Positions 2,858 to 64,000 of a stretch of DNA of 64,000 nucleotides are shown here, one piece after another. The notes beneath the pieces were generated by a model that was given only the letters and a program-made list of their open reading frames with translations, was not told the origin of the DNA and did not search any database. Source of the DNA: Parcubacteria group bacterium CG10_big_fil_rev_8_21_14_0_10_36_14. Its GTDB lineage: Bacteria > Patescibacteriota > Patescibacteriia > GCA-002772895. A program made the translations under genes and the position numbers. Numbering within the stretch: position 1 is the stretch's first letter; each line of letters opens with the position of its first letter. Where the stretch lies: NCBI GenBank assembly GCA_002772895.1, contig PFCS01000050.1, positions 6,728 through 70,727 of the forward strand, written 5' to 3'.

Positions 2858-4006
2858 TTAATCATAAATAATAGTTTTATACTCCTCAATCAGTTTTTCC
2901 ACTATTTTTTTCCAATTATATTTTTCTTCTGCAAATTGACGAGCTTTTCCTCCCATTCTTTTTCTTAAATTTTCATCAAAAATAATTTTACGAATTTTTT
3001 CTGCCAAATCTTTTGCATCCCCAGGCTCTGCCAAAAATCCATTTTCTCCATCATTTATAATGGTTCTTACTCCAGAAAGGTTTGATGCGATAAGTGAGAT
3101 TCCAGAAGCTCCTGCTTCCAAAAGAACAATGCCAAAAGCCTCTGCCCTATCTATTGACGGCAGAACAAAAACGTCGGCTAAGCGATAATAATCCGGAAGC
3201 TCTGCATCTACAACTCCGCCAGTAAAAATAACTTTTTGCGCAATACCCAAGCCCTCTGCCATATTTTGATAATCCTGCTTGAGATCTCCTTCACCAACTA
3301 TAATTAATCTTATATTTTCGTTATTAATTTCTTTTATTGATTTTAATAAAATCGCAAGACCCTTAAAGTTGTGTGGTTTATCCAGACCTCCGACAAAAAG
3401 AATGACTTTATCATTATTATCAATATAGTATTTTTTCAAAAGATCTTCATTTTTTTCTTTTGGAAAAAACTTTTGAGTATCAACTCCAAATGGCAATTCA
3501 AAAAATTTTTCTCTTTTACTATGAAAATATTTTTTTATGTCAGAACTTTCTACATAATCAAACGAAGAAACAATTATTTTATTCGCGCGCTTGAGGAGTA
3601 AAGGGATAATAAATTTTTTATATAGCTGAAAAATAACCCCTCTATATCCATTACTCACCAAGTCCATATGATAAGTCAAAACCAATTTTTTCTTAGGATG
3701 AAAAATAGAATAAAACCAAACCGGAAAACTCGCGCCTAAGAATGGTAAATGGAGATGAATAATATCAAAATCTTTCAATTCAAAAATTATCTTCGGGATC
3801 AATGCGGCATTGCCAATGCTTAAGACGGAATTTATCCTCTTTACTTTAAAATCCTCATTAAAATCAGGACTGATATTACTGTAATTGGGCGTAAAAATAG
3901 TTATGCGAGCACCTCCCTTTGCCAGCTCACGTGAAAAACCATAAACAGAGTTCCCTATGCCTCCTCTATACGGCGGAAATGTGCAAACGATTTGAGCAAT
4001 TTTCAT
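2858..4006 (-). CDS. Glycosyltransferase, GT4 (GT-B fold).
   Basis: N-terminus MKIAQIVCTFPPYRGGIGNSV and C-terminal EAFGIVLLEAGASGISLIASNLSGVRTIINDGENGFLAEPGD (E-x7-E-type GT4 motif). I trimmed the start from the track's 4042 to the MKIAQI methionine, which removes the 28-nt overlap with the upstream GT2. Confidence 0.8.
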   Translation of the reverse strand: MKIAQIVCTFPPYRGGIGNSVYGFSRELAKGGARITIFTPNYSNISPDFNEDFKVKRINSVLSIGNAALIPKIIFELKDFDIIHLHLPFLGASFPVWFYSIFHPKKKLVLTYHMDLVSNGYRGVIFQLYKKFIIPLLLKRANKIIVSSFDYVESSDIKKYFHSKREKFFELPFGVDTQKFFPKEKNEDLLKKYYIDNNDKVILFVGGLDKPHNFKGLAILLKSIKEINNENIRLIIVGEGDLKQDYQNMAEGLGIAQKVIFTGGVVDAELPDYYRLADVFVLPSIDRAEAFGIVLLEAGASGISLIASNLSGVRTIINDGENGFLAEPGDAKDLAEKIRKIIFDENLRKRMGGKARQFAEEKYNWKKIVEKLIEEYKTIIYD

Positions 4007-4014
4007 ATTTTTTA

Positions 4015-5109
4015 TTATAATATTCTTCGAACCATTCTCCAATATAGAGCAAATATCGGATTAGCGATTTTATTTAAAATCCAATTATCCACATCCTGAA
4101 ATAAAATTTTTCCGACAAAGTATTGGGCAATTTCTTTGTCTGTTGTTTTCCGTAATTTTTGTGTTTGCCTTCTTTTGGCGCAAATTTTTCTCCAATTATT
4201 TGGATACAAAAAATATTCATAAACACGAAGTTTCTCCCGCCAAAAACCGGAAAATAATGAAAAGAAAAATAATCCTACCTCCATAACAATAAACGCCGGA
4301 AAAATTAGAATCAATGTCCAAGCGTTATAATTTTTCAAAACCGTTAGATAACGGTTCCTCTCCATAAAATAATACTTTTTTATTGATTTTGAAAACTCAT
4401 ATTTATGATAAATAGTTGATTCGGGCGCCAAAATATTTTTATATCCTGCCAAGCTTAAGCGCCAGCCCAAATCAGTATCTTCGTGATACATAAAAAACTC
4501 TTCATCAAAATACCCAACTTTTTTCAGCGCTTTCATATTAAAAAGTGTTCCCGCTCCACTTGCATAAGCAATATTTAATTCTTCCTCGCGCGCGTACCAA
4601 TCTAATAAATATTTGTCCGCTTTTTCTTTGCTCCATCCATAGCCATAACAATATCCAAAACCAAGATAGTGTATCGCATTTCCCATTGTATTCATAACAT
4701 TGGGTACAGGAAGTCCTGTGGCATCTTTTGGATATAAATAAATCAACGATTGAACTGAACCTATTTTTTCATCCATTTTTTTAAGCGCATTTTCCAAAAA
4801 ATCAAAATTTACAGCAGTATCCTGATTTAAAAGATATGCATAGTCAAACCCTCTTTCTTCCAAATATTTAAATCCAACATTATTCCCTTCGGCAAAACCA
4901 AGATTTTTATAAGATCGTAAAATAGTCAAATTAGAAAATTGTTTTCCAAACTTTTCTTTTACATAATTCGCGCTCCCATCTGTTGAGGCATTATCAATAA
5001 ATAGAATCAAAAAATTAGGATATTTAACTCGCGATAAAGAAAAAAACAAGTCGTCAAGATATGGGCGACTATTATAGGAAACAATAATTATACCTATCTT
5101 TGGATTCAT
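4015..5109 (-). CDS. Glycosyltransferase family 2 (rhamnosyl/galactosyl-transferase-like).
   Basis: IGIIIVSYNSRPYLDDLFFSL...ILFIDNASTDGS is the classic GT2 N-terminal Rossmann-like signature, with DxD-type acidic residues downstream. Confidence 0.8.
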   Translation of the reverse strand: MNPKIGIIIVSYNSRPYLDDLFFSLSRVKYPNFLILFIDNASTDGSANYVKEKFGKQFSNLTILRSYKNLGFAEGNNVGFKYLEERGFDYAYLLNQDTAVNFDFLENALKKMDEKIGSVQSLIYLYPKDATGLPVPNVMNTMGNAIHYLGFGYCYGYGWSKEKADKYLLDWYAREEELNIAYASGAGTLFNMKALKKVGYFDEEFFMYHEDTDLGWRLSLAGYKNILAPESTIYHKYEFSKSIKKYYFMERNRYLTVLKNYNAWTLILIFPAFIVMEVGLFFFSLFSGFWREKLRVYEYFLYPNNWRKICAKRRQTQKLRKTTDKEIAQYFVGKILFQDVDNWILNKIANPIFALYWRMVRRIL

Positions 5110-5148
5110 AATAAACTTTCGTTTGCTATGCTTATTTTATTAAAAGCG

Positions 5149-5466
5149 CTACTCTTTTTTTGCAAGATTTTCTATTATTTTAGAAATGTCCCTTTCAATC
5201 TTTTCCTGCCTCACGAATAACCTGAATATCATATAAAAAACAAAAATAAGCGAACTATAGACCACAAGATCCGCCCCTCTCCCAATACCCAATTTTTCCG
5301 CCAGAAGACTTGTAATTTGCGGAAGAAGAACGACTGCGCCAACCACCAACCAAAAAATAATCCAAAATAAAAACTCACGCAGACTTATTTTTCGTTCTTT
5401 ATACTTTCGAGCCGTCTGCAAAACTATAAGTACAATAATTATTAATATAACGTACTGAATCAGCAT
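5149..5466 (-). CDS. Small two-TM membrane protein (DUF2304-like), typically co-encoded with GtrB-like GT2.
   Basis: 105 aa with two hydrophobic helices (ILIIIVLIVLQ, FWIIFWLVVGAVVLLPQ) and a charged C-terminal tail; lies immediately downstream of a DPM1/GtrB-like GT2. Confidence 0.55.
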   Translation of the reverse strand: MLIQYVILIIIVLIVLQTARKYKERKISLREFLFWIIFWLVVGAVVLLPQITSLLAEKLGIGRGADLVVYSSLIFVFYMIFRLFVRQEKIERDISKIIENLAKKE

Positions 5467-5468
5467 AA

Positions 5469-6125
5469 TTATTTAAAAATTAAATCAAATAAGATATGGA
5501 AAGCGCCAGAAAGACGCTGACCTTTGCGTTTTGAATAAATCGTATATTTCACGGTAATAGGAAGCTCTTTATAGCTCAATTTTAATCGAGCAATTTCATG
5601 AACAATCTCTGACGCATGAGCCATCCTATCCTGACGGATTTTAATTTGTTCCGCTGCTTTGCGGTTCATTATACGAAAACCATTATGTGTATCCGTTAAT
5701 CTCAGTCCGGTGATAGCGCGAGTAAAAAGAATTGCGGATTTAAGAATTATTTTTTTAAAAAGAGGTATTCTATTCCCAGATAAAAATCTCGAACCTAAAA
5801 CTACGTCACATTTTCCGTTAATTACCGGGTGGCACAATCTTGAAATTTCTTCTGCTTCAAATTGACCATCGGCGTCGTATGTTACGACAACATCTGCGCC
5901 CTGCTTTAGGGCATAATTTATTCCTGTGCGCAGAGCTGCCCCCTGACCTCTATTTAAAATATGACGCAAAACCTTTACACCCGCAATCTCTGCAATTTTG
6001 CTTGTCTTGTCTTTTGAACCATCATCAACGACTACTATATCTTTATAAAACTTTTGCACGTCTCTAATCGTATCTGCAATAACAGACGCTTCATTATAAG
6101 CCGGAATGATGACAAAAGTTTGCAT
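5469..6125 (-). CDS. Polyprenol-phosphate sugar synthase, GT2 (DPM1/GtrB/ArnC-like).
   Basis: MQTFVIIPAYNEASVIADTIRDVQKF...VVVDDGSKDKTSKIAEIAG...VVTYDADGQ are the DPM1/GtrB hallmarks. Start trimmed to MQTFVII (the track start at 6197 would overlap the upstream SDR gene). Confidence 0.8.
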   Translation of the reverse strand: MQTFVIIPAYNEASVIADTIRDVQKFYKDIVVVDDGSKDKTSKIAEIAGVKVLRHILNRGQGAALRTGINYALKQGADVVVTYDADGQFEAEEISRLCHPVINGKCDVVLGSRFLSGNRIPLFKKIILKSAILFTRAITGLRLTDTHNGFRIMNRKAAEQIKIRQDRMAHASEIVHEIARLKLSYKELPITVKYTIYSKRKGQRLSGAFHILFDLIFK

Positions 6126-6132
6126 AGATATT

Positions 6133-7125
6133 CTAAATTCCAAAAAGTTCTTTATGTGCCAATGTGTAATCAACCGTCTTCTTAAGTCCATCTTCAAGGC
6201 GTACTAACGGCAACCACCCTAGCTCTTCTTTTGCTTTTTTAATATCTGGCAAAGCAAGCTCGGTTATAAATGGCAGTTCTTTTTTATAAACTATTTTAGA
6301 ATTTGAACCAGTCAGCTTCATAATTTTTTCTGCGACGCTTACAAGGCTCATATCGACATCAGAACCAATATTTACCGGGCCTATATTACTTTTTGCATCT
6401 ATTAATTTTTCCAAAGCATCAACAACATCGGCAACATAAACCATAGAGGTCTTAAATTTTTCATTTCCATATATTTCTAAGTTTTGATTCTGGGTAGCAG
6501 AAACAATAAAATCAATTATCATTTCTCCATCAAAAAGGCGTTGGCGAGGACCATAAACACGGAAAAGACGAGCAATCTTATAATCGGTTTTATAAACCTG
6601 GTGATATGTTGCTACAATTGTTTCCGCAAAACGCTTTCCTTCATCATAACAAGCGCGAGGAGAAAGATGGTCAACTATGCCTTCGGCATCTTCCAAAACT
6701 TTGCCTGCATTTTTTTCTCTTCCGCCATAAACAACCGATGAAGAAACGTGAACAAATTTTGATTTATATTTCAAAACCATCTCCATTATATTTTTCATTC
6801 CTTTAGCGTTTGCATCGAGTGTACTTATTTTATATTTTTCAAAATTTTTAGCCGATGTCGGACAGGCAAAATTTAAAATAGCGTATAATCCCTTGACATT
6901 AATCTGAAACCTTTGGAGTTCGGTCATTTTTTCTAAATCAAATTCCTGGCTTATGTCATGTTTTATAAACTCAAAATCAGAATTCTGAACCAAATGATTT
7001 ATATTTTTCTCACTGCCGGTAGAAAAATTATCCAAACAGATAACATTATATTTTTTTAGCAATCGTTCACATAAATGCGAACCAACAAATCCGGCTCCGC
7101 CGGCAACAAGCACATTTTTTTTCAT
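6133..7125 (-). CDS. NAD-dependent SDR; UDP-glucuronate decarboxylase (UXS)-like epimerase/dehydratase.
   Basis: MKKNVLVAGGAGFVGSHLCERLLKKYNVICLDNFSTGSEKNINHL parallels the UXS N-terminus. Catalytic Y/K sits in ACYDEGKRFAE (UXS: YDEGKRVAE). RLFRVYGPR parallels RIFNTYGPR. Confidence 0.7.
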   Translation of the reverse strand: MKKNVLVAGGAGFVGSHLCERLLKKYNVICLDNFSTGSEKNINHLVQNSDFEFIKHDISQEFDLEKMTELQRFQINVKGLYAILNFACPTSAKNFEKYKISTLDANAKGMKNIMEMVLKYKSKFVHVSSSVVYGGREKNAGKVLEDAEGIVDHLSPRACYDEGKRFAETIVATYHQVYKTDYKIARLFRVYGPRQRLFDGEMIIDFIVSATQNQNLEIYGNEKFKTSMVYVADVVDALEKLIDAKSNIGPVNIGSDVDMSLVSVAEKIMKLTGSNSKIVYKKELPFITELALPDIKKAKEELGWLPLVRLEDGLKKTVDYTLAHKELFGI

Positions 7126-7163: not shown

Positions 7164-9155
7164 TTATCTTGAAATAATATATGCGTTAAATTTTACTTTA
7201 CTGTCTTTTCCAAGCGGATATAGAGTTGCTGTACGATTGAAATACTTATCCCAAATGGATATTTCACTGCCCGTTCTAGTCAATATTTCATATTCATTAT
7301 CATTATCTCTATCTCCGGAAGAAACAAAGTCCGCACCACTAAATCCGGGAGATAATAAACGTCCATTTAATGTATAGGTCTTAACTATTTTACCATTTGT
7401 TAAAACTATTTCCGCCCATCCGTCATTATTCATATCTGCGACTGCCATACTTTTATTATATACATAAACAAATTCTCCTAAAAGTTCGCCTTTATTATTT
7501 AAAGTTTTTATATTATTTCCGATTGCAACAATTATCTCATCTTTTCCATCTTTGTTCATATCGCCCAAAGCTATTTGCGAAGCTATTCCCGCAATATCTA
7601 TCTCTTTACCCGCTTCTATTCCATTTTGATTATATACTCTTACTCTCTTTCCATTCCTCGCCTCCACTGTAATTATTTTTGATTTTCCATTACCGTCTAA
7701 ATCACCAATTGCCACTTTGACACCATTGCGGTTGTTGGTATCATAAGCGAAAAATTGATATTCCAATTCTCCGGATAAATTGAAAATTCGTATATGTGGA
7801 CCACCGCCTGCGCCTGCGCCGGCTACAATTTCTGTCATTCCATCATTATCAACATCTCCCAATGCCAAATTAACTCCGCCTCTAAAGCTAGGGGCAAAAG
7901 CATAAAATTCTTTTTTAACATCCCCTTTTCCGTCTAAAAGCCAAATTTTTGGCTCATCGCCTGGATTAGAACCTAAAACATACTTTACTTCCTGCTCTTT
8001 ATTTAATTCCATTGAAATCGGCTCATATCCTACAGTCTTTGCCACATTCAGTCTTCCGCTTCCCAAAAGTCCTGCAAAATACGGGTTTGCTCCATCAATA
8101 TTATCCGTGCTATTTATCAAAACTTCTGTTATCTCTTTATTTGTATAATTTGGATGAATGGCTTTGATTAAAACAGCAGCGCCACTTACTTGTGGAACTG
8201 ACATTGATGTGCCGTTTAGCTTTCCACCAAAAAATTTATTAAAATCACTATCTTTTGAACTATAAAATAAAGAACTATAGATATCTGTCGCTGGAGCTGA
8301 CAAGTCTATGCAACTTTTTCCATAATTGGAAAATTCTGCGCGTTTATCGTCTTTATCTACTCCGGCAACTCCCAAAACCCAGTTCTCGCCATTCTCACCG
8401 AAACAAACAGGATAAGATTTTATATTATCCAAATTAGTCCCATGATTATTACCGCTTTCATTTCCTGCCGCAGCCACCAATAAAATACCTTGTTGATAAG
8501 CTTTTTTTATTGTTTCTTCCAAATCTCTGGAATACCCCAGTCCGACAAAACTCATATTTATAATGTCTGCTCCATTTTTCATAGCATATTCTATAGCTCT
8601 TTGCACAATAACCGTATCTGACTCACCCAACTCATCAAAAGCCCGTAAAACCATTATTTTTGCCTTCCAAGCAACACCTGCTCCGGCAAAAGCGTTATTG
8701 CCTTCTGCCGCAATTAGACCGGCAACAGCTGTTCCATGATGAATTGCTATTTCTGTATGCCAATTTTCTAATTTTGGTTCTGGCTCATTATCATTTTCTA
8801 TAAAATCCCAGCCCTTTACGTCATCTATATATCCATTATTATCATCATCTAACCCATTCCCCGAAATTTCATTTGGATTTATCCAGATATTATTTTTCAA
8901 ATCCGGATGATCCATTTGAACCCCGGAGTCAATAACGGCAACAACTATGTCATTACTTCCTTGTGTTTCTATCCAAGCATCTGGAGCGCCAATTTTTTGT
9001 AAATGCCACTGATATTCTACTCCTATATCACTAACTGTTAATCCAGCAAGATAAAATTTTGCAGGAGACTCTTCTGCTTGACAAACGGGCGTAAAAAAAC
9101 CAAATACAAAAATAAATAAATGGACAAAAACTAATTTTTTTGAAAAATTATGCAT
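7164..9155 (-). CDS. Secreted subtilisin-like serine protease (S8) with C-terminal FG-GAP/VCBS-type repeats.
   Basis: Signal peptide MHNFSKKLVFVHLFIFVFGFFTPVCQA. Catalytic triad boxes are VAVIDSGV (Asp), HGTAVAGLIAA (His) and GTSMSVPQVSGAA (Ser). The C-terminal half carries repeated GDxDNDGxxEI / GDLDGNGKSKII / GDMNKDGKDEII motifs typical of FG-GAP. Confidence 0.85.
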   Translation of the reverse strand: MHNFSKKLVFVHLFIFVFGFFTPVCQAEESPAKFYLAGLTVSDIGVEYQWHLQKIGAPDAWIETQGSNDIVVAVIDSGVQMDHPDLKNNIWINPNEISGNGLDDDNNGYIDDVKGWDFIENDNEPEPKLENWHTEIAIHHGTAVAGLIAAEGNNAFAGAGVAWKAKIMVLRAFDELGESDTVIVQRAIEYAMKNGADIINMSFVGLGYSRDLEETIKKAYQQGILLVAAAGNESGNNHGTNLDNIKSYPVCFGENGENWVLGVAGVDKDDKRAEFSNYGKSCIDLSAPATDIYSSLFYSSKDSDFNKFFGGKLNGTSMSVPQVSGAAVLIKAIHPNYTNKEITEVLINSTDNIDGANPYFAGLLGSGRLNVAKTVGYEPISMELNKEQEVKYVLGSNPGDEPKIWLLDGKGDVKKEFYAFAPSFRGGVNLALGDVDNDGMTEIVAGAGAGGGPHIRIFNLSGELEYQFFAYDTNNRNGVKVAIGDLDGNGKSKIITVEARNGKRVRVYNQNGIEAGKEIDIAGIASQIALGDMNKDGKDEIIVAIGNNIKTLNNKGELLGEFVYVYNKSMAVADMNNDGWAEIVLTNGKIVKTYTLNGRLLSPGFSGADFVSSGDRDNDNEYEILTRTGSEISIWDKYFNRTATLYPLGKDSKVKFNAYIISR

Positions 9156-9158
9156 AAA

Positions 9159-9845
9159 CTAGTTCTTAGCTGGCTCAACTTTAATTTCTAGTTCTTTAAT
9201 TAAATTTTGATATCCGGTGTTATTTGGATAAGCTTGAGAAAGCATCTTATAGTACTTAAGGGCTTTTTCATATTCTCCTACACTATTCAAATAACTGGCG
9301 TAGCTATTCACTAAATTGCCTCCACTTACAACAGTTACTAGTCCTTTTTCGTAAACAGCCATAACGTCTTCTTTGCTTTTATTCATATATAAACGATAAA
9401 GGTCAGCCAATGCGATATACAGATTTTGCTCTCCAATATCTTGCTCAAGCGCAATTTTCAAATCATTTTCTGCTTTGTCATACTCTTCCAACTCTATATA
9501 AACGTTGGCTTGATTTAAAAATGGTAAATAAGCCTTTGTTCCCCAACGTTTTATAACTTCATCATAAAGCTTTGCGGAACGCCATAAATATTTTTCATCT
9601 TTCAGCACCTCGCCAATTCCTTTCCAGTTAAACGCCAAACTCATCCAACCGTCATAAAAGGTAGGGTCTTTCTTAACTTCTTTTTCACGTTGGACTATAA
9701 GAGCATAAGCATCCTTCGTCTGGGGATTTTCCGATAAGAACTTTGCTTCTTTTTGTTTTTCGAAATACGAATATCCATAAAATCCACCGACCGTCAAAAG
9801 TATGACAATAATCAAAACTATTAATAAAATTAGTACTTTTTTCAT
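9159..9845 (-). CDS. Membrane-anchored TPR-repeat protein.
   Basis: N-terminal TM segment MKKVLILLIVLIIVILLTVGGFYGY, followed by TPR-like helical repeats (e.g. EYEKALKYYKMLSQAYPNN, YDKAENDLKIALEQD). Confidence 0.6.
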   Translation of the reverse strand: MKKVLILLIVLIIVILLTVGGFYGYSYFEKQKEAKFLSENPQTKDAYALIVQREKEVKKDPTFYDGWMSLAFNWKGIGEVLKDEKYLWRSAKLYDEVIKRWGTKAYLPFLNQANVYIELEEYDKAENDLKIALEQDIGEQNLYIALADLYRLYMNKSKEDVMAVYEKGLVTVVSGGNLVNSYASYLNSVGEYEKALKYYKMLSQAYPNNTGYQNLIKELEIKVEPAKN

Positions 9846-9969: not shown

Positions 9970-11328
9970 ATGCTTATTTTAACTAAAATTAAACAATTAA
10001 CTTTACTTTTTGGCGATTTTTTAATACTTCTCGCTTCTCTTTATTTTACCTTGATTGTCCGCTATAGTCAAACTGGAGCAGTAGATCACTGGCAAGAGCA
10101 TTTTTATCCTTTTGCTATTATTTATTTTATCTGGCTTTTAGTATTTTATTCGCAAAATCTATACAATTTGAATTTCGCTAAAAATAATCTCTTCTTTTTT
10201 AAAACACTTTTTGAAGCATTTTTAATAAATATTTTCATAGCGACTTTTTTCTTTTATTTTACTCCTTTTTTCGGAATTGCGCCGAAAACAAATTTATTCT
10301 TAAACGTCATCTTAGCAGGTTGTCTTGTTTTTGTTTGGCGAGGAATTTTCAACCTTTTTACTGCAAAATATTTATTTGTAAATAAAATTGCTTTTTTGGG
10401 ATACTCTAAAGAGGTGGAAGAACTTGCTAAAGCTTTTGAAGCCGAACCTCAACTTGGATATAAAGCCGTGTGTGTTATTCATGATGAAATAATCAACACG
10501 TTTCTTAAACAAGTATCAATGCATGAGCTTCTAAATAGTGTCAAAGAACTCGGCGTTAATACTGTAGTAATCCACCATGGAAAAAATCTTGATAACGACA
10601 CAGCCAATAAACTCTACAAACTTATTTTCTGTGACTTATCTTTTATTAATTTATTAGATCTCTACGAAGAAATAACCGGCAAGCTTCCCTTGGAAACGCT
10701 CTCTCGAGGATGGTTTCTGGAAAACCTAATGGAATCTGAAAAAAAAATATATGACCGAATAAAAATTTTGGGCGACTTTATTCTAGCTCTTTTCTGTAGC
10801 GTAATACTTATTGTTCTTTTTCCTTTTGTTGCAATAATAACACTACTCATAGATAGGGGTCCTGTCTTTTATTCTCAATATCGCATAGGACGAGGAGGAA
10901 GGCCTTTCAAAATATATAAATTTAGGACAATGATAAAAAATGCTGAAAACGGAAATGCGGTGTTTGCACAAAAATCCGATAGCCGTGTTACGCCTTTTGG
11001 AAAATTTTTGCGAAAAACAAGAATTGACGAACTACCACAAATACTAAATGTTCTACGCGGAGAAATGAGTTTCATCGGACCGCGTCCGGAACGACCAGAA
11101 TTTGTAGAAGAATTATCGCAAAAAGCGTCGTTCTATCCTTTGCGTCATCTTTCAAAACCGGGACTAACCGGTTGGGCGCAAATCAACTATCCTTATGCTG
11201 GTAACATTGAAGAAAATGTAAAAAAATTACAATATGATATATACTATATAAAAAACCGTTCTTTCCTTTTGGATGCAACAATAATTCTCAAAACCTTCAA
11301 CATTATCCTAAGATTTAAAGGAAGATAA
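9970..11328 (+). CDS. Undecaprenyl-phosphate sugar phosphotransferase (WbaP/WcaJ-like 'bacterial sugar transferase'); initiating enzyme.
   Basis: N-terminal multi-TM region. C-terminal catalytic domain reads PFKIYKFRTMIKNAE...RVTPFGKFLRKTRIDELPQILNVLRGEMSFIGPRPERPEF, the canonical PF02397 signature. Confidence 0.85.
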   Translation: MLILTKIKQLTLLFGDFLILLASLYFTLIVRYSQTGAVDHWQEHFYPFAIIYFIWLLVFYSQNLYNLNFAKNNLFFFKTLFEAFLINIFIATFFFYFTPFFGIAPKTNLFLNVILAGCLVFVWRGIFNLFTAKYLFVNKIAFLGYSKEVEELAKAFEAEPQLGYKAVCVIHDEIINTFLKQVSMHELLNSVKELGVNTVVIHHGKNLDNDTANKLYKLIFCDLSFINLLDLYEEITGKLPLETLSRGWFLENLMESEKKIYDRIKILGDFILALFCSVILIVLFPFVAIITLLIDRGPVFYSQYRIGRGGRPFKIYKFRTMIKNAENGNAVFAQKSDSRVTPFGKFLRKTRIDELPQILNVLRGEMSFIGPRPERPEFVEELSQKASFYPLRHLSKPGLTGWAQINYPYAGNIEENVKKLQYDIYYIKNRSFLLDATIILKTFNIILRFKGR

Positions 11329-12515: not shown

Positions 12516-12549
12516 TCAGCGGCTAATTCTTATATTCTATTTTTGTATT

Positions 12550-12577
12550 TTTAAAATCCCCTTTCGGGGATTTTAAA
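12550..12577. terminator. Intrinsic terminator hairpin between convergent genes (MFS-like on +, SDR epimerase on -).
   Basis: ttaaaatcccc-tttc-ggggattttaa is a perfect 11-12-bp stem with a 4-nt loop, followed by TTTTT on the plus strand. It sits in the 65-nt gap between the stops at 12515 and 12581. Confidence 0.65.
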
Positions 12578-12580
12578 TTT

Positions 12581-31648: not shown

Positions 31649-31676
31649 AACATCCTGCGATATCGCAGGATGTTTT
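31647..31676. terminator. Perfect 30-bp palindrome; bidirectional intrinsic terminator shared by convergent neuC-like (+) and 2-hydroxyacid dehydrogenase (-) genes.
   Basis: aaaacatcctgcgat|atcgcaggatgtttt. Both stop codons (TAA at 31646-31648 on +, TAA encoded at 31675-31677 on -) overlap the stem ends. A-tract upstream and T-tract downstream. Confidence 0.7.
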
Positions 31677-44066: not shown

Positions 44067-44184
44067 TTTATTTTTTTGCAATTAAATATAAAATATCTCT
44101 CCTTGCCGAAAAAATTTCCGACTTTATTAAGATTCAATTTTTTAAAAACTACCTTTATATTATTTTAAACACAAATAGAATAGT

Positions 44185-51679: not shown

Positions 51680-51687
51680 ATATTTTA

Positions 51688-58673: not shown

Positions 58674-58704
58674 AGAAATGCCACTATTTTTTAGTGGCAT
58701 TTTT
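58674..58704. terminator. Intrinsic terminator hairpin between convergent genes (CotH paralog on +, GT-C membrane protein on -).
   Basis: aaatgccacta-ttttt-tagtggcattt is an 11-bp perfect stem, extendable by G-U and A-T pairs, with a 5-nt loop and a T-tract downstream on +. The minus-gene stop codon (cta at 58684-58686) lies inside the left arm. Confidence 0.65.
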
Positions 58705-60033
58705 TATTTTATAAGCAAACCCATAGACTCCTAGGGCAATATATATGTATATGTACGGATTGACTGGTTGCCGGAAACGGGAATAAGACGCTACGCCTGT
58801 CGCCAGGACAAAATAATAAATTAAAAAAAGAAGGAATACCGCACTTATTCTATTGTCCTTGAAGCCAAATATCCAATAAAGCACACCAAACAAAGCGAAT
58901 AAATTCAGTATCAAAAGTATTGCCTTGCCACCCAAAAATATGACCCCGCCAACTCCCCTATATTGTAGTACGGGAATTTTTAAAATATCTTTCCAGGAAT
59001 AAAACCAAGTTTCAAAAACTACTCTTTGCTGTTCAAGCGGTGGATATATAGCAGCGGCTGTAGTAAAATAACTATCACCCAGAAAAAAAGGAATCATATT
59101 TGATAAATGAACCTCCATAAAAGCAATGGGATGAGCGGCAATGTACTTTAAAGTAACTAATTTTAGATCATTCATTTTTATGTCACCTATTTCTGCCACA
59201 TTATCACCGACATTTAAATATGTCATCGTCAAATATTTTCTAAAAGCTACGGTTTTGCTTGCTGAAGATAAATCAAAAGTATTAAATAAAACTTTATTCC
59301 TTGCGGCCCAGGGAGAGATCAAAATTATAAATGCTGCAACCATCAACAATATGGCAACAAAATAGCGGAAAAAAGAGCAAAAATTTATTTTTTTAATTAC
59401 TGCTAAGGAAAAAATTACAAAAACTAATAAAATAAATTGCGCGACCGGTCTCACATAATTAAGACATGCCAATAACGCGCCTGTCACAAGAAAAGCTAAA
59501 GGGTTGACCTGGCGGTTTATGAGAATCTTTTTTACAAAAATATAAACGCTAACTACCAATATAAAAGTAAACAATGTCTCGCTAAGCAACTGATTATTCC
59601 AATAAATCACAGCTGGTTCGCACGCATATATGGCCGCCGCTAACAGAGCTATTGATTTTTTTCGCAAGAGCAAAATACACAACTTATAAATAATAACTAT
59701 AACAAAAAGCGCAAGTAAATCTTGGAATAAAACTGTGGGCCAGGCTACGGGAATAAAACGGTAAAAAATAGAAATAACAAAGGGATAGCCCGGCGTCCTA
59801 AAAAACTCATTCTCAAAAGGGGACGTTTCGTTTCTTGAAAAAACACTATGTTCAGATAGATTCTTTGCCAGTGTCAGATACTGCTCAGAATCCTCGCTGT
59901 TATGAGGATAAAAACCCTTATCTCCGAAATTATGTAAAATAAACCCAAAAAAAATTATGCGCAAAATGAGAGCCACCGCTAAAACAAGTAGCAAGCCTCT
60001 ATTTTTCTTAATGAATTTTTTAATTCTAAGCAT
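58684..60033 (-). CDS. GT-C-fold membrane glycosyltransferase, GT39/PMT/ArnT-like (polyprenyl-phosphate-sugar dependent).
   Basis: N-terminus LLLVLAVALILRIIFFGFILHNFGDKGFYPHNSEDSEQYLTLAKNL is the characteristic first TM plus acidic loop-1 (D-E) region of PMT/ArnT-type enzymes. About 11 TM helices, 449 aa. Confidence 0.6.
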   Translation of the reverse strand: MLRIKKFIKKNRGLLLVLAVALILRIIFFGFILHNFGDKGFYPHNSEDSEQYLTLAKNLSEHSVFSRNETSPFENEFFRTPGYPFVISIFYRFIPVAWPTVLFQDLLALFVIVIIYKLCILLLRKKSIALLAAAIYACEPAVIYWNNQLLSETLFTFILVVSVYIFVKKILINRQVNPLAFLVTGALLACLNYVRPVAQFILLVFVIFSLAVIKKINFCSFFRYFVAILLMVAAFIILISPWAARNKVLFNTFDLSSASKTVAFRKYLTMTYLNVGDNVAEIGDIKMNDLKLVTLKYIAAHPIAFMEVHLSNMIPFFLGDSYFTTAAAIYPPLEQQRVVFETWFYSWKDILKIPVLQYRGVGGVIFLGGKAILLILNLFALFGVLYWIFGFKDNRISAVFLLFLIYYFVLATGVASYSRFRQPVNPYIYIYIALGVYGFAYKIKNATKK

Positions 60034-60042: not shown

Positions 60043-61452
60043 TTATTTAAACTTCATTTGGGTTGACGGCACTTTGGCACCTCTACCAAAACCCAAAATC
60101 CACTTAATAAAAAATTTTGATATTGCTTTTATCGTATTCAAATCGTAAACGCCTATTTTATAAAAACGCCTCAAAATATATTTTGGACGAAAATAAAATG
60201 TTTTAAATGCTTTTTTATAAAATTCTTCCACTTTTTCCGAAGCAACGGTAGGCAATTCCATAATTGACTGAGAAAAATTATATTGGGTCCAATCCTCCGT
60301 TTTTAAATACCCCTCTTCTTTTGCCCAGTAGTACATTTCTGTCCCAGGATAAGGCGTGGCAATATTAAAAACCGCTAAATCAGGATCGAGCTCCACGGCG
60401 TAATTTAAAGTTTTTTGCATTGTTTCTTCTGTCTCTCCCGGATTGCCAAACATAAAAGCCAACCTACAATTAATCCCAACTTCTTTCGTCATTTTTACGA
60501 CTTCCTCAACGCGTGGCAAATTTATACGTTTCCGAATATTTAATAAAATTTGCGGGTCAGCCGACTCAACACCATACATTATTTGATGGCAACCTGCCTT
60601 TTTTAAAATATCCAAAGTTTCTCTATCCACACAATCAACACGCGAAAAACAAGACCATGATATATTAACCTTTTCTGCGATAACCAGTTCACAAAATTCT
60701 TTTATATTTCTTTTCACCGCAGTAAAAGTATCATCGTAAAAAGATATTTCTCGAATTCCATGGTTTTTTTGTAATAATTTTATTTCATCTAAAAGACGAC
60801 GCGCTGTAAAATATCTTATTCGCGGACCAAAGTTCTGATAACAATAGGTACATGTACCCGGGCAACCTCTCGTCGCTATAAAACCAAAAGCCGGCAATCG
60901 TTTGTATGCTCCTAGGGCTGGATGATACTTTTCCATCGGTAAAAGATGAGTAGGGAGAAATGGTAAAATATCCAAATCTACTAAAAATGGGCGTCTTTCA
61001 TTATGGATAATTTGCTGATCTTTTTTATAAGATAATCCCAAAATTTCGCTCAAGGATTTACCGAAAACAAGCTCGTTCATAGCAAATTCTCCTTCATCAC
61101 GAATAACATAATCTACAAAATCATTCGATAAAACCTCGTCAGGTCTTAATGTGGAATGGACTCCACCAAAAACAATTTTGCTATCTGGAAAAATTTCTTT
61201 ACAAATTTTAGCGCTTTCCAAAGCATTATTTATAATTCTAGTTGTGCCGGTAAGACCAATAAAATCCGGCTTTTCTTTTAATCCTTCTAAACGCAGTTTC
61301 AACAACTCTGCCGTCAATTGTTCTGCACGCGCATCTATCATAATAACTTTTCGTGGCCCTTTTCCAAAAGAACTCCCGCAACTGACAATAAACCTATGGA
61401 TGGGTAGCACGGATTTATAATTGACCATGCACTTATATTGTCTATAATCCAA
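60043..61452 (-). CDS. B12-binding-domain radical SAM enzyme (class B rSAM), paralog 3.
   Basis: ...DFIGLTGTTRIINNALESAKICKE... (B12-binding-like region) and cluster motif ATRGCPGTCTYCYQ. 469 aa. The precise start is uncertain (alternative internal Met codons exist). Confidence 0.75.
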   Translation of the reverse strand: MDYRQYKCMVNYKSVLPIHRFIVSCGSSFGKGPRKVIMIDARAEQLTAELLKLRLEGLKEKPDFIGLTGTTRIINNALESAKICKEIFPDSKIVFGGVHSTLRPDEVLSNDFVDYVIRDEGEFAMNELVFGKSLSEILGLSYKKDQQIIHNERRPFLVDLDILPFLPTHLLPMEKYHPALGAYKRLPAFGFIATRGCPGTCTYCYQNFGPRIRYFTARRLLDEIKLLQKNHGIREISFYDDTFTAVKRNIKEFCELVIAEKVNISWSCFSRVDCVDRETLDILKKAGCHQIMYGVESADPQILLNIRKRINLPRVEEVVKMTKEVGINCRLAFMFGNPGETEETMQKTLNYAVELDPDLAVFNIATPYPGTEMYYWAKEEGYLKTEDWTQYNFSQSIMELPTVASEKVEEFYKKAFKTFYFRPKYILRRFYKIGVYDLNTIKAISKFFIKWILGFGRGAKVPSTQMKFK

Positions 61453-61482: not shown

Positions 61483-62178
61483 TTAATCAAAAAAATTAAA
61501 TTTTATAATACACCACAGGGCGCTAATAGCATCTTTCCAATTTATTTTTTTTCCCTCTTCATATGTCCTACCTGAATAGGAAATACCTACCTCATATATA
61601 CGAAATTTATTTTTTGCAATCTTGGCTGTGATTTCTGGTTCAAATCCAAAACGATTTGATTGTAAAGTAGGACCTATTGTTTCTATTACTTTTTTTACAA
61701 AAACCTTATAACACGTTTCCATGTCAGTTAAAGTTAGATTGGTAAACATATTTGAAAGAAGTGTTAAAAATTTATTTCCCAATAAGTGCCAAAAATATAA
61801 AACACGATGGCTTCCTCCGCCAATAAAACGCGAACCATAAACAACATCTGCCCGCCCTGATAAAATCGGCTCCAAAAGTTTTGGATATTCCCCCGGGCTA
61901 TACTCTAAATCAGCATCTTGAATTAAAAATATATCTCCGGTTGCCTCTTTGAAACCGCGTCTCAAAGCAGCGCCCTTACCCTGGTTCTTTTCTTGATAGA
62001 AAACCCTGTATCTATTCTCTAAACTCTTCAAAATATCACGCGTACTATCAGTTGAAAAATCATCAATTAAAACTGTCTCTTTTTCTATGTCCCCCAAATC
62101 CACAGCATCAATCCTCTCTAATATTTTGAGAATTGTTTTTTCTTCATTATAAATTGGAACAATTATTGATAATTTCAT
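61483..62178 (-). CDS. Polyprenol-phosphate sugar synthase, GT2 (DPM1/GtrB-like).
   Basis: [23 protein letters not shown]...[15 protein letters not shown]...[12 protein letters not shown] are DPM1 hallmarks. It lies directly downstream of a B12-rSAM gene, the same arrangement as 37111-39258. Confidence 0.8.
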
Positions 62179-62185
62179 AAAAATA

Positions 62186-63277
62186 TTATTGAATTTTATT
62201 CCATATTTCTTTTATTTTATTTAAATATTCTTCTTTTGTTAATAATATATTTTCTATCACTAGTCTAGCATTTTGCGCTAACCGATTGGCAAGCCCTCTG
62301 TCTTTTGCCAATCTTAATATTGCCTCCTTCAATGCTTCTTTATCATTTACCGGAACAACGAGCCCAGATTCTTCATTTTTTATTACCTCATCAGCCAGAC
62401 CAACATCCGTCATTATAATCGGCAAGCCACAAAAAACCGCCTCTATCACAGCCCTTCCCCAACCCTCATAAAGTGACGAATGAACAAAAATATCTGCTTC
62501 TCCGTAATATTTATCCAAATTTGTTTGATATCCGATAAAAGCAACGCTTTCTCCAAGTTGTAAATTGCGAACTAAAAGTTGTAAACTTTTTTTAAGCCAA
62601 CCCTCACCAGCAATAATAAGTTTTGCATTTGGTAGTTGCTTTTTTATTTCCGCAAACGCTTCTATAAGCTGTTTATGATTTTTAACAGGCACTAAATTTC
62701 CAACCGATAAAATAATAAAATCATTATTATCTTTCTGGGTTTTTATCAATTCTTTTCTTTCCGTAAAAATCGGAACAGTAGTAATATTTTTATTTATTTC
62801 TTCAATTGATCTTCTAATTCTTTCACTAACAACACGAACAAAAGTCGCTCGTCTTAAAATAAATTTTCCCAAATACCATCTAAAACGATTTAATAATCTT
62901 TCGTTTTTCCAATATTTATTTCCATACAAATCACCATGAAGCTGAACTTCCAGCCCAATTTTATATTTTTGCGCTAAAAGCCAGCCAATAAAACCCGTCT
63001 CAAACGGATCTTGAGATGTAATCACCCACTCATCTTTTACGCTTAAAATTTTACTCCCTATATTTTTTGCTTTCAATAAAGCAGCTAATCTATTACCAGA
63101 AGTCGGATAAACGAATATATTTTTATCCAGATTGTTTTTTTCCCCTGATTTACCCAAAATAATTATATGTAGCTCGTCGCAAATAGAGCCGTAATCCCTC
63201 ATTCGGCCAGCTGAACTTGAATTTTTGTCTAAAATTGAACCATCTAAGCTCAACATTAAAATCTTCATAATTGACAA
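62186..63277 (-). CDS. Glycosyltransferase, GT4.
   Basis: ...[27 protein letters not shown]... and ...[46 protein letters not shown] (E-x7-E). Confidence 0.8.
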
Positions 63278-63325
63278 ATTGGTCTTATTATATTAACATA
63301 ATATAATTATATATTCAATGTTTAT

Positions 63326-64000
63326 ATGAATAAAACACCGCATAATTGCCTAAATAACGATAAAATTTTTATTATAGCCGAAGCAGGCAAAAATTTTATA
63401 CAGACAGAAAATGGCCGTCCCATATCGGAATACCTGGAAAACGCCAAAAAACTAGTACTGGAAGCTAAAAAAGCCGGAGCTGATGCCATAAAATTCCAAA
63501 CGCATAATGTTTACGATGAACAGCTTGATATAAATGTGATTTCATCACATTTTAAGAGTTCTGACCGCTATTCATGGGTAACTCGTAATACACTTGCAAC
63601 GCCCATGGAATTTTGGACGGAATTAAAAAACTTTTGCGACAAAATCGGAATTATCTTTTTTTCTACGCCAATGTCAAGAGGCGCAGCAAAAAAAATTAAT
63701 CACTTAATACCCTTTTGGAAGGTGGGATCAGGCGATATCCTAGACTTTGTAATGCTCGATTATCTTGCAGACACTAAAAAACCAATTATCCTTTCGTCGG
63801 GAATGAGCACACTTGAAGAAACCGACTTAGCAATTAATTTTTTAAAAAAACGAGGTGCAGAAATACATCTTTTGCATTGCGTTTCCAAATATCCGTGCGC
63901 GCCCGAGGATCTAAAATTAAATACAATCCCCTTCTTGAATGAAAGATATGGCATTAGAACCGGATTTTCCGACCATTCTTTAAATATTACTTCCGTGCTT
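63326..64000 (+). CDS. neuB: Second N-acetylneuraminate/nonulosonate synthase (NeuB/LegI/PseI family), 5' partial; continues beyond window end.
   Basis: Missing from the ORF track because it is partial. Translation from the ATG at 63326 reads MNKTPHNCLNNDKIFIIAEAGKNFIQTENG...ADAIKFQTHN...IPFWKVGSGDILD...ILSSGMSTLEE...IHLLHCVSKYPCAPEDLKLNTIPFL...GFSDHSLNITSV. The IAEAG, KFQ, KVGSGD, SSGM, LHCVSxYP and GxSDHS boxes are NeuB signatures. Confidence 0.8.
   Translation, partial: MNKTPHNCLNNDKIFIIAEAGKNFIQTENGRPISEYLENAKKLVLEAKKAGADAIKFQTHNVYDEQLDINVISSHFKSSDRYSWVTRNTLATPMEFWTELKNFCDKIGIIFFSTPMSRGAAKKINHLIPFWKVGSGDILDFVMLDYLADTKKPIILSSGMSTLEETDLAINFLKKRGAEIHLLHCVSKYPCAPEDLKLNTIPFLNERYGIRTGFSDHSLNITSVL

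Follow-up and report, generated by a model that had tools for sequence, protein, structure and literature searches.

We analysed a window of 64,000 nucleotides (nt) from contig PFCS01000050.1, which belongs to a groundwater bacterium of the candidate phyla radiation (CPR; Patescibacteria, Parcubacteria) from a Crystal Geyser genome bin, and found that from position 2858 to the window end at 64000 it carries one contiguous run of surface-glycan genes. This island spans at least 61 kb and 56 open reading frames (ORFs), 51 of them on the minus strand. We consider it likely that the island is composite, joining several kinds of glycan machinery, most of them known, with a few unusual modules, and that it is not a single oversized O-antigen-type cluster. 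Four layers make up this composite: a Bac_transf phosphoglycosyl transferase with GT4 and GT2 enzymes and a Wzx-type flippase; two NeuC/NeuB/NeuA sets with two TagB-like transferases; three small GT2s, two of which lie in a duplicated module with a B12-binding radical S-adenosylmethionine (SAM) enzyme, a GT-C-like membrane protein and a CotH/beta-helix protein; and a pair of VTC and DUF4956 genes.

The window contains 59 ORFs of at least 100 aa in near-gapless tiling, each of which we scanned against Pfam. Summed ORF lengths equal 98% of the 2858–64000 span, with gaps that are mostly shorter than 15 nt or are overlaps. Families for sugar-nucleotide synthesis, glycosyl transfer or tailoring account for 47 of the 56 island ORFs (Pfam/NCBIfam), and about 28 of those 47 belong to glycan-specific families. 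Seven further ORFs are plausible accessories (two CotH/beta-helix proteins and one each of VTC, DUF4956, CBS, DUF2304 and MFS), and two, an S8 peptidase and a TPR protein, are not glycan-related. A first-pass annotation of this DNA had described a contiguous glycan island of more than 61 kb that runs off the right edge and in which essentially every gene has a glycan function or is accessory to one. The extent was confirmed, from the GT4 gene at 2858 to a partial NeuB gene, with independent assemblies in agreement; the description of the genes fits 54 of 56 ORFs (47 plus 7) but not the S8 peptidase and the TPR protein.

The 11 glycosyltransferases comprise four GT4, five GT2 and two TagF-like (TagB/TagF-like) enzymes. 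Membrane and assembly functions are represented by two polytopic GT-C-like proteins, one Bac_transf initiating transferase and one Polysacc_synt (Wzx) flippase, and dehydrogenases by three short-chain dehydrogenases/reductases (SDRs), one UGDH-like and one GFO/IDH/MocA protein, plus one 2-hydroxyacid dehydrogenase. There are three Epimerase_2 proteins (two NeuC, one WecB), two NeuB proteins and two NeuA-type cytidylyltransferases. Tailoring genes encode eight SAM methyltransferases, three B12-binding radical-SAM enzymes, one AsnB-type amidotransferase and one polysaccharide deacetylase; one DegT aminotransferase and one CDP-alcohol phosphotransferase are also present. The tallies given earlier (11 glycosyltransferases, 8 methyltransferases, 3 radical-SAM enzymes and so on) essentially match these Pfam counts, and family annotation of the 56 ORFs bears out an unusually large, tailoring-rich locus. 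With profile hidden Markov models run on all ORFs, the majority proved to be glycan-related, and the blocks are functionally related, not a mosaic of unrelated operons. The view of the region as a single island is right about its contiguity, but a composite of several glycan systems is the better description. Genes that had gone unnamed are the two CotH proteins, the VTC, DUF4956 and CBS proteins, a GNAT/DegT-like and a FemAB-like protein, the NTP_transf_3 and HAD pair, the MFS transporter, the S8 peptidase and the TPR protein.

An all-against-all protein comparison of the window revealed widespread internal paralogy. The two NeuC proteins (g17 and g31; gene numbers as in Table 1) are 37% identical, the NeuA pair (g18 and g30) 38%, the NeuB pair (g19 and g58) 35% and the TagF-like pair (g21 and g26) 36%, and three methyltransferases (g29, g39 and g41) are 32–35% identical to one another.

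The left boundary at 2858 is real; to its left lie a DUF5667 protein (1935–2846), an ORF without a match (1476–1925) and a partial Lon-like AAA protein (1–1329, minus strand). That the 61-kb contiguity might be an assembly or binning artefact joining unrelated loci is suggested by the origin of the sequence in a metagenome bin and by the breaks that several assemblies show near 63.3–63.6 kb, but its probability is negligible. Independent assemblies from different samples and assemblers (JGI 3300004208/3300004210, ENA ERZ27293400/412/414 and SRR6240784/89; several samples) overlap with the same order and sequence: gene order is kept over about 5.0–25.8 kb, and sequence is 99.99–100% identical to the window over 25,272–63,623. 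Because these assemblies reproduce both, a chimera is excluded for practical purposes. Base composition is uniform as well (about 34% GC in the window and 29–39% per gene), and NCBI locus tags run consecutively along one 88.6-kb contig; g53 is 100% identical to PIR66443.1 (hypothetical protein, COU51_04135), and the tags of four other window proteins run consecutively with COU51_04135. The right end of the island lies past the window, and contigs with identical g57 or g53 proteins stop at 63.2–63.6 kb. A genome-collection scan with the partial second NeuB protein (NeuB-2, g58) returned relatives at no more than 69% identity, and the host genome was not among them. Several same-population assemblies (L005/L014, L006 and L012) end at 63246–63623, at or just inside the NeuB-2 gene, and these ends may mark a strain-variable junction directly right of the window.

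A mobile element or recent transfer was rejected, with no tRNA, integrase, transposase or long or flanking repeat in the window and with uniform GC content; the first-pass annotation had likewise seen no transposase, integrase or tRNA.

GT2, B12-radical-SAM and GT-C modules

A four-gene module of a small GT2, a B12-radical-SAM enzyme, a polytopic membrane protein and a CotH/beta-helix protein is present twice in the island (copies A and B, Table 1). Full-length identity between the two CotH copies is 35%, and the copies of the radical-SAM enzyme share 31% and those of the GT2 28%. In another Parcubacteria genome (L019), genes for a GT2, a B12-radical-SAM enzyme and a PMT_2 protein stand in the same order, the PMT_2 protein being 56% identical to g54; genes syntenic with 42–52 kb of the window follow, and no CotH gene is found there. 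The conserved unit is a GT2–B12-radical-SAM–GT-C triad, not a tetrad with CotH. For the small GT2s g06, g36 and g56 (231–242 aa), the best NCBIfam models are PpgS, ArnC, AglJ and Dol-P-hexose transferase, all scoring under cutoff. The models nearest to the radical-SAM enzymes are P-methyltransferases (the best), HpnJ and BchE, again all sub-cutoff, and we think it most likely that the enzymes in the modules C-methylate a lipid-linked sugar or glycan. Phosphonate decoration was not adopted: PEP mutase is absent from the window, despite the P-methyltransferase-like scores. In one relative (L025, 19212–21159), genes for a phosphodiesterase and a PEP mutase come after a homologous block of Wzx, g34-like, NeuB and TagF-like genes, an arrangement that suggests phosphonate decoration in that relative.

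For the two membrane proteins of the modules, PDB sequence and profile searches returned nothing. Homologues of g54 carry PMT_2/PMT domains (PF13231/PF02366) and are named GT39. The other protein, g34, has 610 aa, with 10–12 transmembrane (TM) helices and a C-terminal soluble part, and even permissive thresholds brought no match for it in Pfam, NCBIfam or the PDB. A profile search nevertheless recovered a large family, with 1563 cluster representatives at E<=1e-3 and 409 at E<=1e-30, mostly of 570–630 aa. Longer members carry N-terminal fusions to a GtrA-type domain (two), a GT2, a GT4 or a methyltransferase (two). Comparison of this family with the GT39-like family of g54 by hhalign gave a probability of 93.6% (E 2e-7, 193 columns) with a 51-member alignment, where an earlier 5-sequence alignment had given 77.8%; the match takes in the first external loop, where an Asp is conserved, and the helices that follow. 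We treat g34 as a putative member of an undescribed GT-C-like family remotely homologous to GT39.

In two relatives (L018 and L025), a Wzx-type flippase gene overlaps at its end with the start of the g34 homologue. After the homologue come genes for a NeuA-UGDH fusion, NeuB, 2-Hacid_dh, TagF-like, HAD and NTP_transf_3 proteins, families that lie at about 17–32 kb in the window. The neighbourhood of a g54 homologue (35% identical) in an Uhrbacteria genome (L024, GCA_016181485.1, 8001–16039) includes GFO/IDH/MocA, a phosphopantetheinyl transferase and an AMP-binding enzyme, together with Fe-ADH, LuxE and LuxC, and hints at acyl or fatty-aldehyde chemistry tied to the GT-C clade of g54.

Sugar supply, CotH/beta-helix proteins and the VTC–DUF4956 pair

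The NCBIfam matches above curated cutoffs are those of the two NeuC proteins, WecB, EPS_sugtrans (g10) and AsnB. The NeuB and NeuA proteins, the SDRs and the aminotransferase match Neu/Pse/Leg (sialic, pseudaminic and legionaminic acid) families and fall under the equivalog cutoffs. Two nonulosonic-acid pathways are thus present in the window, resolved to the level of the family and not of the product; the same holds for sugar identities and donor specificities in general, because most matches are sub-cutoff. NeuA-2, NeuC-2 and NeuB-2 are scattered in the window, and we assign them to one pathway because their homologues are adjacent in L007, where a NeuB protein 68% identical to NeuB-2 adjoins NeuA-2-like and NeuC-2-like genes. 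This locus (CAZCGN010000001.1, a 780-kb contig) is labelled 'uncultured Methanosarcinales archaeon', which could reflect a taxonomic mislabel or horizontal transfer.

The TagB-like proteins g21 and g26 are the best candidates for nonulosonate or polyol-phosphate transfer. Their best NCBIfam family is BFO_1060 (66 and 57 bits against a cutoff of 200), which comprises TagB-like Tannerella forsythia proteins of about 445 aa that are needed for the terminal pseudaminic or legionaminic acid derivative on a protein O-glycan (PMC5420450). We regard this likeness as a lead, not an assignment, because the scores are far under the cutoff and the HP and D/E-D/E-G sialyltransferase motifs of the Tannerella transferases are not clearly present in g21 or g26. 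In NCBIfam, the closest enzymes to g23 (NTP_transf_3) and g46 are inositol-phosphate cytidylyltransferase and CDP-inositol transferase. The UGDH-like g13 (263 aa), either a remnant or an unusual short form, has the N-terminal GxGxxG motif and the central domain but no UDP-binding domain at its C-terminus. The idea that g16 (CBS) and g13 are halves of a CBS-UGDH fusion split by insertion of the VTC and DUF4956 genes was rejected because g13 keeps its own GxGxxG motif and shows only about 26% similarity to the fused L016 protein.

Both CotH/beta-helix proteins, g33 and g53, have an N-terminal TM helix in a TM scan. An AlphaFold model of g53 from a 24-sequence alignment (pLDDT 86) consists of the anchor helix, a CotH domain (about residues 83–446), a beta-sandwich (453–579) and a right-handed beta-helix (600–885). 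The model matched Bacillus cereus CotH 5jd9 with a Foldseek target TM-score of 0.82 (E 6e-17), and the beta-helix matched alginate lyases, the alginate C5-epimerases AlgG and AlgE, NosD and phage tailspikes. Many Asp residues are invariant in the beta-helix alignment, which suggests a catalytic and not purely binding role. Conserved residues of the CotH domain include the Lys, the Asn and, within the PWD motif, the metal-binding Asp.

A CotH/beta-helix gene is directly followed by VTC and then DUF4956 in all three relatives examined (L015, L016 and L017), and the trios of L015 and L016 sit inside glycan loci with fused ABC exporters beside CotH. Genes for CotH, a polyphosphate polymerase and DUF4956 are accessory genes of Gram-positive pel loci (PMC7112168). 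In Streptococcus intermedius (SIR_1592–1594), Pel levels and aggregation fall when either the CotH-like or the DUF4956/MgtC-like gene is deleted, and the authors of that work reported finding no such trio outside pel loci (PMC12345266). In the CPR loci described here, the CotH–VTC–DUF4956 trio does occur away from pel genes. In L017 (6264–14331), homologues of the window's g01 (64% identical) and of its DUF5667 protein lie directly upstream of the trio, and the glycan island may have grown at an ancestral site like that of L017.

Proposed working and rival explanations

We judge it probable that the island works as a composite cell-envelope glycan super-locus; its gene content is observed, and the steps that follow draw on knowledge of the families. 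In the cytoplasm, the two NeuC/NeuB/NeuA sets would make two CMP-nonulosonic acids, and WecB, the three SDRs, the DegT aminotransferase, the GFO-type dehydrogenase, acyltransferases and AsnB would give rise to amino, deoxy and N-acyl sugars. The WbaP-type phosphoglycosyl transferase (g10) would start a polyprenyl-diphosphate-linked oligosaccharide, to be extended and capped by the four GT4, two larger GT2 and two TagB-like transferases and moved to the outer side of the membrane by the Wzx-type flippase. The three small GT2s would make polyprenyl-monophosphate sugars, which the two GT-C enzymes would add outside the membrane, a logic known from the Gtr, CsbB/YfhO, ArnC/ArnT, Ppm1/PMT and PpgS/Rv3779 systems. 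The B12 radical-SAM enzyme of each module would most likely modify the lipid-linked sugar or glycan by C-methylation, and the eight SAM methyltransferases, the deacetylase and the amidotransferase would tailor the product. Finally, the anchored CotH/beta-helix proteins would act on the exported glycan or a protein carrier, probably together with the VTC and DUF4956 pair.

Several observations weigh against this scheme. As annotated, the export and attachment steps are incomplete (no GtrA, Wzy, regulator, ABC, LCP or PglL/PilO): Wzy, Wzy_C, EpsG and ligase Pfam models did not match the two polytopic membrane proteins even at E<=5, no Pfam family for a chain-length regulator (Wzz/PCP, CpsCD) or the outer export protein Wza was present in the 59 ORFs, and no window ORF matched a GtrA-type flippase (GtrA_DPMS_TM). 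The first-pass annotation had already recognised no Wzy/Wzz, ABC-transporter or Wza/Wzc components, and our Pfam scans agree. Most enzyme-level calls fall under equivalog cutoffs (NeuB, NeuA, small GT2s, radical-SAM enzymes, BFO_1060), and the methyltransferases, the radical-SAM enzymes, the HAD phosphatase and AsnB belong to generic families that we place in glycan chemistry by context alone. The AlphaFold model of g34, from a 5-sequence alignment, reached a pLDDT of 53, and its fold is taken from the profiles and fusions only. In the window, the VTC and DUF4956 genes (14.3–15.8 kb) lie 17 kb and 40 kb from the CotH genes and are not contiguous with them, and the L017 trio has no glycan genes within 10 kb. 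The CotH active site is a further point. In Bacillus subtilis CotH, D228 is catalytic and a D228Q mutant is inactive (PMC7821199). We checked the positions of the catalytic residues Asp228 and Asp251 (B. subtilis numbering): at the D228 column, g53 has Gln (His-Gln-Gly-Gly) with no acidic residue near, as two aligners agree, g33 has Glu-Asp, and most close g53 homologues have an Asp shifted by one or two positions. On this alignment g53 may be inactive as a kinase, and one CotH paralogue may be a pseudokinase or perform other chemistry.

The first-pass annotation had raised a protein (S-layer or pilin glycosylation) or a lipid as a possible target in place of a classical polysaccharide. In the protein version, the genes would form, as a whole, a dedicated protein glycosylation system (S-layer, pilin or general O-glycosylation) in which a nonulosonate-capped oligosaccharide is transferred en bloc and PMT-like GT-C enzymes add sugars. 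We regard this as possible, at well below even chances. It agrees with the place of g54 in the GT39/PMT_2 group, with the likeness of g21 and g26 to the transferases by which T. forsythia caps a protein O-glycan with Pse/Leg derivatives, and with the lack of a polymerase, chain-length regulator or exporter among the window genes; the g34 homologue also comes after Wzx in relatives, as an oligosaccharyltransferase or ligase might, and glycoproteins or glycosylated S-layers are believed to be products of CPR genomes. Pfam scans of the window, however, found no Maf, PglL/PilO/TfpW, Wzy_C or PglB/AglB-type protein transferase and no pilin, flagellin or S-layer gene. Moreover, the PMT_2 superfamily also holds lipid- and glycan-modifying enzymes such as ArnT, the beta-helix domains resemble polysaccharide lyases and epimerases, and the CotH trio is otherwise tied to the Pel exopolysaccharide. 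Those lyase- and epimerase-like (alginate-type) beta-helices would suit a different product, a single long-chain wall-linked or capsular polymer (teichoic-acid-like or acidic heteropolysaccharide), with g34 as a Wzy-like polymerase or ligase and the TagF-like proteins adding polyol-phosphate; we hold this, too, to be a tentative and somewhat doubtful alternative. The Bac_transf transferase, Wzx, two Glyphos_transf proteins, the NTP_transf_3 and HAD pair and the CDP-alcohol phosphotransferase are all present for such a polymer, as are, for uronic acids, a UGDH-like protein and an epimerase resembling TviC; the overlap of the g34 homologue with the wzx-type gene in L018 and L025 is in keeping with it, and loci of relatives have ABC exporters and Capsule_synth beside CotH. 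Yet the GT39-type homology of g34 and the GtrA and GT2 fusions of its family fit a polyprenyl-monophosphate-sugar transferase better than Wzy, the Glyphos_transf matches of the TagF-like pair are weak (42 and 25 bits), and Pfam scans of all window ORFs found no MraY-type TagO, TagD or LCP ligase, no ABC exporter (TagGH, Wzm-Wzt or fused ABC) and no Wzz/CpsCD gene.

For the block at about 39–56 kb, a cluster for a glycosylated or aminocyclitol-type small molecule, not an envelope glycan, is very improbable. The block does hold a GFO/IDH/MocA dehydrogenase (second-best match inositol 2-dehydrogenase), DegT aminotransferases, B12 radical-SAM enzymes, many methyltransferases, AsnB and a CDP-alcohol transferase that scores closest to inositol-phosphate enzymes, and such families also occur in aminoglycoside-type clusters. 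The same block, though, also encodes WecB, GT4s and a GT2 of the polyprenyl-phosphate type, and it continues without a break and in the same direction into the GT-C genes; genes for a 2-deoxy-scyllo-inosose or inositol-phosphate synthase, for resistance or for export are absent, and the syntenic block of L019 is embedded between PMT_2 genes. A bolder extension of the super-locus reading seems to us unlikely: that the CotH proteins with VTC and DUF4956 form an outer-face phosphoryl-transfer system, and that the radical-SAM triad is a new route that C-methylates a lipid-linked monosaccharide before transfer. VTC and DUF4956 would then make polyphosphate and thread it across the membrane, like the eukaryotic VTC complex, and the anchored CotH would use polyphosphate or another exported donor to phosphorylate a glycan held by the beta-helix. 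If true, this would solve how a kinase outside the cell is powered without periplasmic ATP.

Known glycan systems and layout of the island

Like Wzx/Wzy O-antigen and capsule loci, the island has a WbaP-type transferase, GT4 and GT2 enzymes, a MOP/Wzx flippase and sugar-nucleotide genes; unlike them, it lacks a recognisable Wzy, Wzz/PCP or OPX and has extra GT-C, radical-SAM and CotH layers. It is two to four times the usual size of such a locus. The Campylobacter jejuni flagellin O-glycosylation island, with about 50 genes and several neuB/neuA/neuC-type paralogues, is similarly large and contiguous; it, too, encodes at least two nonulosonic-acid pathways and numerous tailoring functions (methyl, amidino, acyl), and it has no classical polysaccharide export genes. 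The window, in contrast, lacks its Maf-type transferases and flagellin, and the C. jejuni island itself lacks the phosphoglycosyl transferase, Wzx, GT-C, B12 radical-SAM and CotH/VTC genes of the window. Three-component systems (GtrA/GtrB/Gtr*, CsbB/GtcA/YfhO, ArnC/ArnT, Ppm1/PMT, PpgS/Rv3779) share with the modules a small GT2 beside a GT-C transferase, and members of the g34 family elsewhere are fused to GtrA or GT2. What sets the modules apart is a B12-radical-SAM gene between GT2 and GT-C, twice in the window and again in L019, an adjoining CotH/beta-helix gene at each module and the lack of a stand-alone GtrA in the window.

The Gram-positive pel accessory set resembles the island in its secreted or anchored CotH and its VTC and DUF4956/MgtC-like genes tied to extracellular glycan genes. 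Pel families themselves (pelDEAFG) were not found in the window by Pfam scan, CotH is duplicated and at least 17 kb from VTC/DUF4956, and the window CotH proteins are fused to a beta-sandwich and a lyase/epimerase-like beta-helix where the pel CotH carries FN3. The T. forsythia O-glycosylation locus (BFO_1060/Tanf_01245; PMC5420450) likewise has nonulosonic-acid genes beside TagB-like GT-B proteins of about 450 aa and methyltransferases, and its glycan is built on a lipid carrier and then flipped; it differs in that g21 and g26 score far below the BFO_1060 cutoff, the CPR host is single-membraned, and no oligosaccharyltransferase was found in the window. In full, the island matches none of the Wzx/Wzy, ABC-dependent, teichoic-acid, flagellin-type or pel loci. 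A general remark in the literature credits Parcubacteria with about 20 glycosyltransferases (PMC5220378). Our full-text literature searches found no paper that connects CPR bacteria with nonulosonic acids or reports an island like this one.

Less ordinary features are the size of the island in a CPR genome, the GT2–radical-SAM–GT-C unit, the Pfam-less GT-C-like family, and CotH/beta-helix proteins with VTC and DUF4956 outside Pel. CPR genomes are very small, and the bacteria are believed to live in attachment to other cells; surface chemistry therefore probably plays a central part in their lifestyle. A run of at least 56 genes for surface sugars, with two sialic-acid-like pathways and cobalamin-dependent enzymes, shows the extent to which a minimal genome is given over to the envelope. 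Three leads emerge: a large GT-C-like membrane family without a Pfam model (more than 1500 cluster representatives), a conserved GT2–B12-radical-SAM–GT-C unit, and CotH–VTC–DUF4956 in a second, non-Pel glycan context, which broadens an unexplained association that affects streptococcal Pel levels.

Table 1. Genes, modules and the terminator-like element of the island (window coordinates; bits are model scores)
Feature	Position	Strand	Basis
g03 GT4 glycosyltransferase, left edge of island	2858–4042	-	Pfam Glycos_transf_1 E 5e-44
g04 GT2 glycosyltransferase, 364 aa, one C-terminal TM helix	4015–5109	-	Pfam Glycos_transf_2; TM scan
g05 DUF2304 small 3-TM membrane protein	5149–5466	-	Pfam DUF2304 E 5e-23; TM scan
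g06 small GT2, polyprenyl-phosphate-sugar synthase-like	5469–6197	-	Pfam GT2; NCBIfam PpgS 212 bits, cutoff 370
g07 SDR, NDP-sugar dehydratase/epimerase	6133–7125	-	Pfam Epimerase/GDP_Man_Dehyd
g08 secreted S8 (mycosin-like) peptidase with FG-GAP repeats, not a glycan gene	7164–9155	-	Pfam Peptidase_S8 E 2e-49; NCBIfam
g09 TPR protein, N-terminal TM/signal, not a glycan gene	9159–9845	-	Pfam TPR; TM scan
g10 initiating polyprenyl-phosphate glycosyl-1-phosphate transferase, WbaP/WcaJ type	9970–11328	+	Bac_transf E 2e-63; NCBIfam EPS_sugtrans 350 bits > cutoff 295
g11 MFS transporter	11355–12515	+	Pfam MFS_1
Hairpin, terminator-like on both strands	12536–12591		
g12 SDR, 4-epimerase (GalE/TviC-like)	12581–13483	-	Pfam Epimerase E 4e-65
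g13 short NDP-sugar dehydrogenase-like (UGDH-like)	13489–14280	-	Pfam UDPG_MGDP_dh_N + central domain only
g14 DUF4956/MgtC-like membrane protein	14321–15001	-	Pfam DUF4956
g15 VTC-domain (polyphosphate-polymerase-like) protein	15006–15767	-	Pfam VTC E 2e-40
g16 CBS-domain protein	15764–16129	-	Pfam CBS
g17 NeuC-1, hydrolysing UDP-HexNAc 2-epimerase	16134–17279	-	NCBIfam NeuC_NnaA 392 bits > cutoff 236
g18 NeuA-1, CMP-nonulosonate synthetase-like	17283–17957	-	Pfam CTP_transf_3 above cutoff; PseF-like below cutoff
g19 NeuB-1, nonulosonate synthase	17960–18994	-	Pfam NeuB E 3e-72 (243 bits) + SAF; NCBIfam NeuB 300 bits < cutoff 400
g20 B12-binding radical-SAM enzyme 1	19053–20657	-	Pfam B12-binding + Radical_SAM
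g21 TagB/TagF-like GT-B transferase 1, candidate nonulosonate or polyol-phosphate transferase	20762–22132	-	Pfam Glyphos_transf; NCBIfam BFO_1060 66 bits < cutoff 200
g22 SAM methyltransferase	22136–22963	-	Pfam Methyltransf_11
g23 nucleotidyl(cytidylyl)transferase, inositol-phosphate-cytidylyltransferase-like	22953–23675	-	Pfam NTP_transf_3
g24 HAD phosphatase	23672–24307	-	Pfam HAD_2
g25 polysaccharide deacetylase	24314–25237	-	Pfam Polysacc_deac_1
g26 TagB/TagF-like GT-B transferase 2	25248–26615	-	Pfam/NCBIfam; 36% identical to g21
g27 FemAB-like (GNAT-fold) acyl/aminoacyl transferase, weak match	26619–27359	-	Pfam FemAB 26 bits
g28 Wzx/MOP-type flippase, about 10 TM helices	27371–28747	-	Pfam Polysacc_synt 66.9 bits > cutoff 28.2; NCBIfam MOP flippase
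g29 SAM methyltransferase, paralogue of g39 and g41	28737–29636	-	Pfam
g30 NeuA-2 cytidylyltransferase (CTP_transf_3 above cutoff, PseF-like below cutoff)	29638–30342	-	Pfam CTP_transf_3
g31 NeuC-2	30455–31648	+	NCBIfam NeuC_NnaA 373 bits > cutoff 236
g32 D-2-hydroxyacid/phosphoglycerate dehydrogenase-like	31675–32625	-	Pfam 2-Hacid_dh_C
g33 CotH-kinase + beta-helix protein 1, 896 aa, N-terminal TM anchor	32622–35312	-	Pfam CotH + Beta_helix; 35% identical to g53
g34 610-aa polytopic membrane protein, putative new GT-C-like family	35272–37104	-	Profile search + hhalign
g35 B12-binding radical-SAM enzyme 2	37111–38520	-	Pfam/NCBIfam
g36 small GT2, polyprenyl-phosphate-sugar synthase-like	38530–39258	-	Pfam GT2; best NCBIfam ArnC/PpgS/AglJ
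g37 SDR, 4,6-dehydratase-like	39329–40351	-	Pfam/NCBIfam
g38 SAM methyltransferase	40348–41154	-	Pfam
g39 SAM methyltransferase	41269–42219	-	Pfam
g40 AsnB-type glutamine amidotransferase	42225–44081	-	Pfam Asn_synthase E 2e-88; NCBIfam
g41 SAM methyltransferase	44185–45120	-	Pfam
g42 SAM methyltransferase	45172–45918	-	Pfam
g43 GT4 glycosyltransferase	45920–46924	-	Pfam
g44 WecB, non-hydrolysing UDP-GlcNAc 2-epimerase	46921–48009	-	NCBIfam wecB 305 bits > cutoff 210
g45 GT4 glycosyltransferase	48071–49198	-	Pfam
g46 CDP-alcohol phosphotransferase, membrane protein	49209–49943	-	Pfam CDP-OH_P_transf; TM scan
g47 SAM methyltransferase	49955–50572	-	Pfam
g48 DegT/PseC/LegC-type sugar aminotransferase	50576–51742	-	Pfam DegT E 3e-119
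g49 GT2 glycosyltransferase	51688–52503	-	Pfam
g50 SAM methyltransferase, NodS-like	52470–53189	-	Pfam
g51 GNAT (Acetyltransf_6) + partial DegT-like protein	53191–54708	-	Pfam
g52 GFO/IDH/MocA sugar 3-dehydrogenase-like	54710–55717	-	Pfam; NCBIfam UDP-GlcNAc 3-dehydrogenase-like, below cutoff
g53 CotH-kinase + beta-sandwich + beta-helix protein 2, 939 aa, TM-anchored (PIR66443.1)	55840–58659	+	Pfam; AlphaFold (AF2) model
g54 GT39/PMT_2-like GT-C glycosyltransferase, 449 aa, about 9 TM helices	58684–60033	-	Weak Pfam PMT_2; homologue domains
g55 B12-binding radical-SAM enzyme 3	60043–61452	-	Pfam; 31% identical to g35
g56 small GT2, polyprenyl-phosphate-sugar synthase-like	61483–62178	-	Pfam GT2 E 3e-34; best NCBIfam AglJ/PgfS/Dol-P-hexose transferase
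g57 GT4 glycosyltransferase	62186–63277	-	Pfam
g58 NeuB-2, partial, runs off window	63365–64000	+	Pfam NeuB E 3e-47 (161 bits)
Module copy A (GT2 / radical-SAM / membrane protein / CotH)	38530–39258 / 37111–38520 / 35272–37104 / 32622–35312		
Module copy B (same order)	61483–62178 / 60043–61452 / 58684–60033 / 55840–58659		

Strand switches and a few gaps of more than 100 nt split the island into about ten blocks, and the tight spacing of the genes, most of which run in one direction, suggests a few long operons. The hairpin between the convergent g11 (MFS) and g12 (SDR) genes, with 26-nt arms and T-runs on both sides, is the sole convincing terminator-like element in the first 20 kb. A promoter scan returned 94 sites against 77 expected and is uninformative in this AT-rich DNA. 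The g08 peptidase and g09 TPR genes (7164–9845) are co-oriented with the flanking glycosyltransferase genes inside the island.

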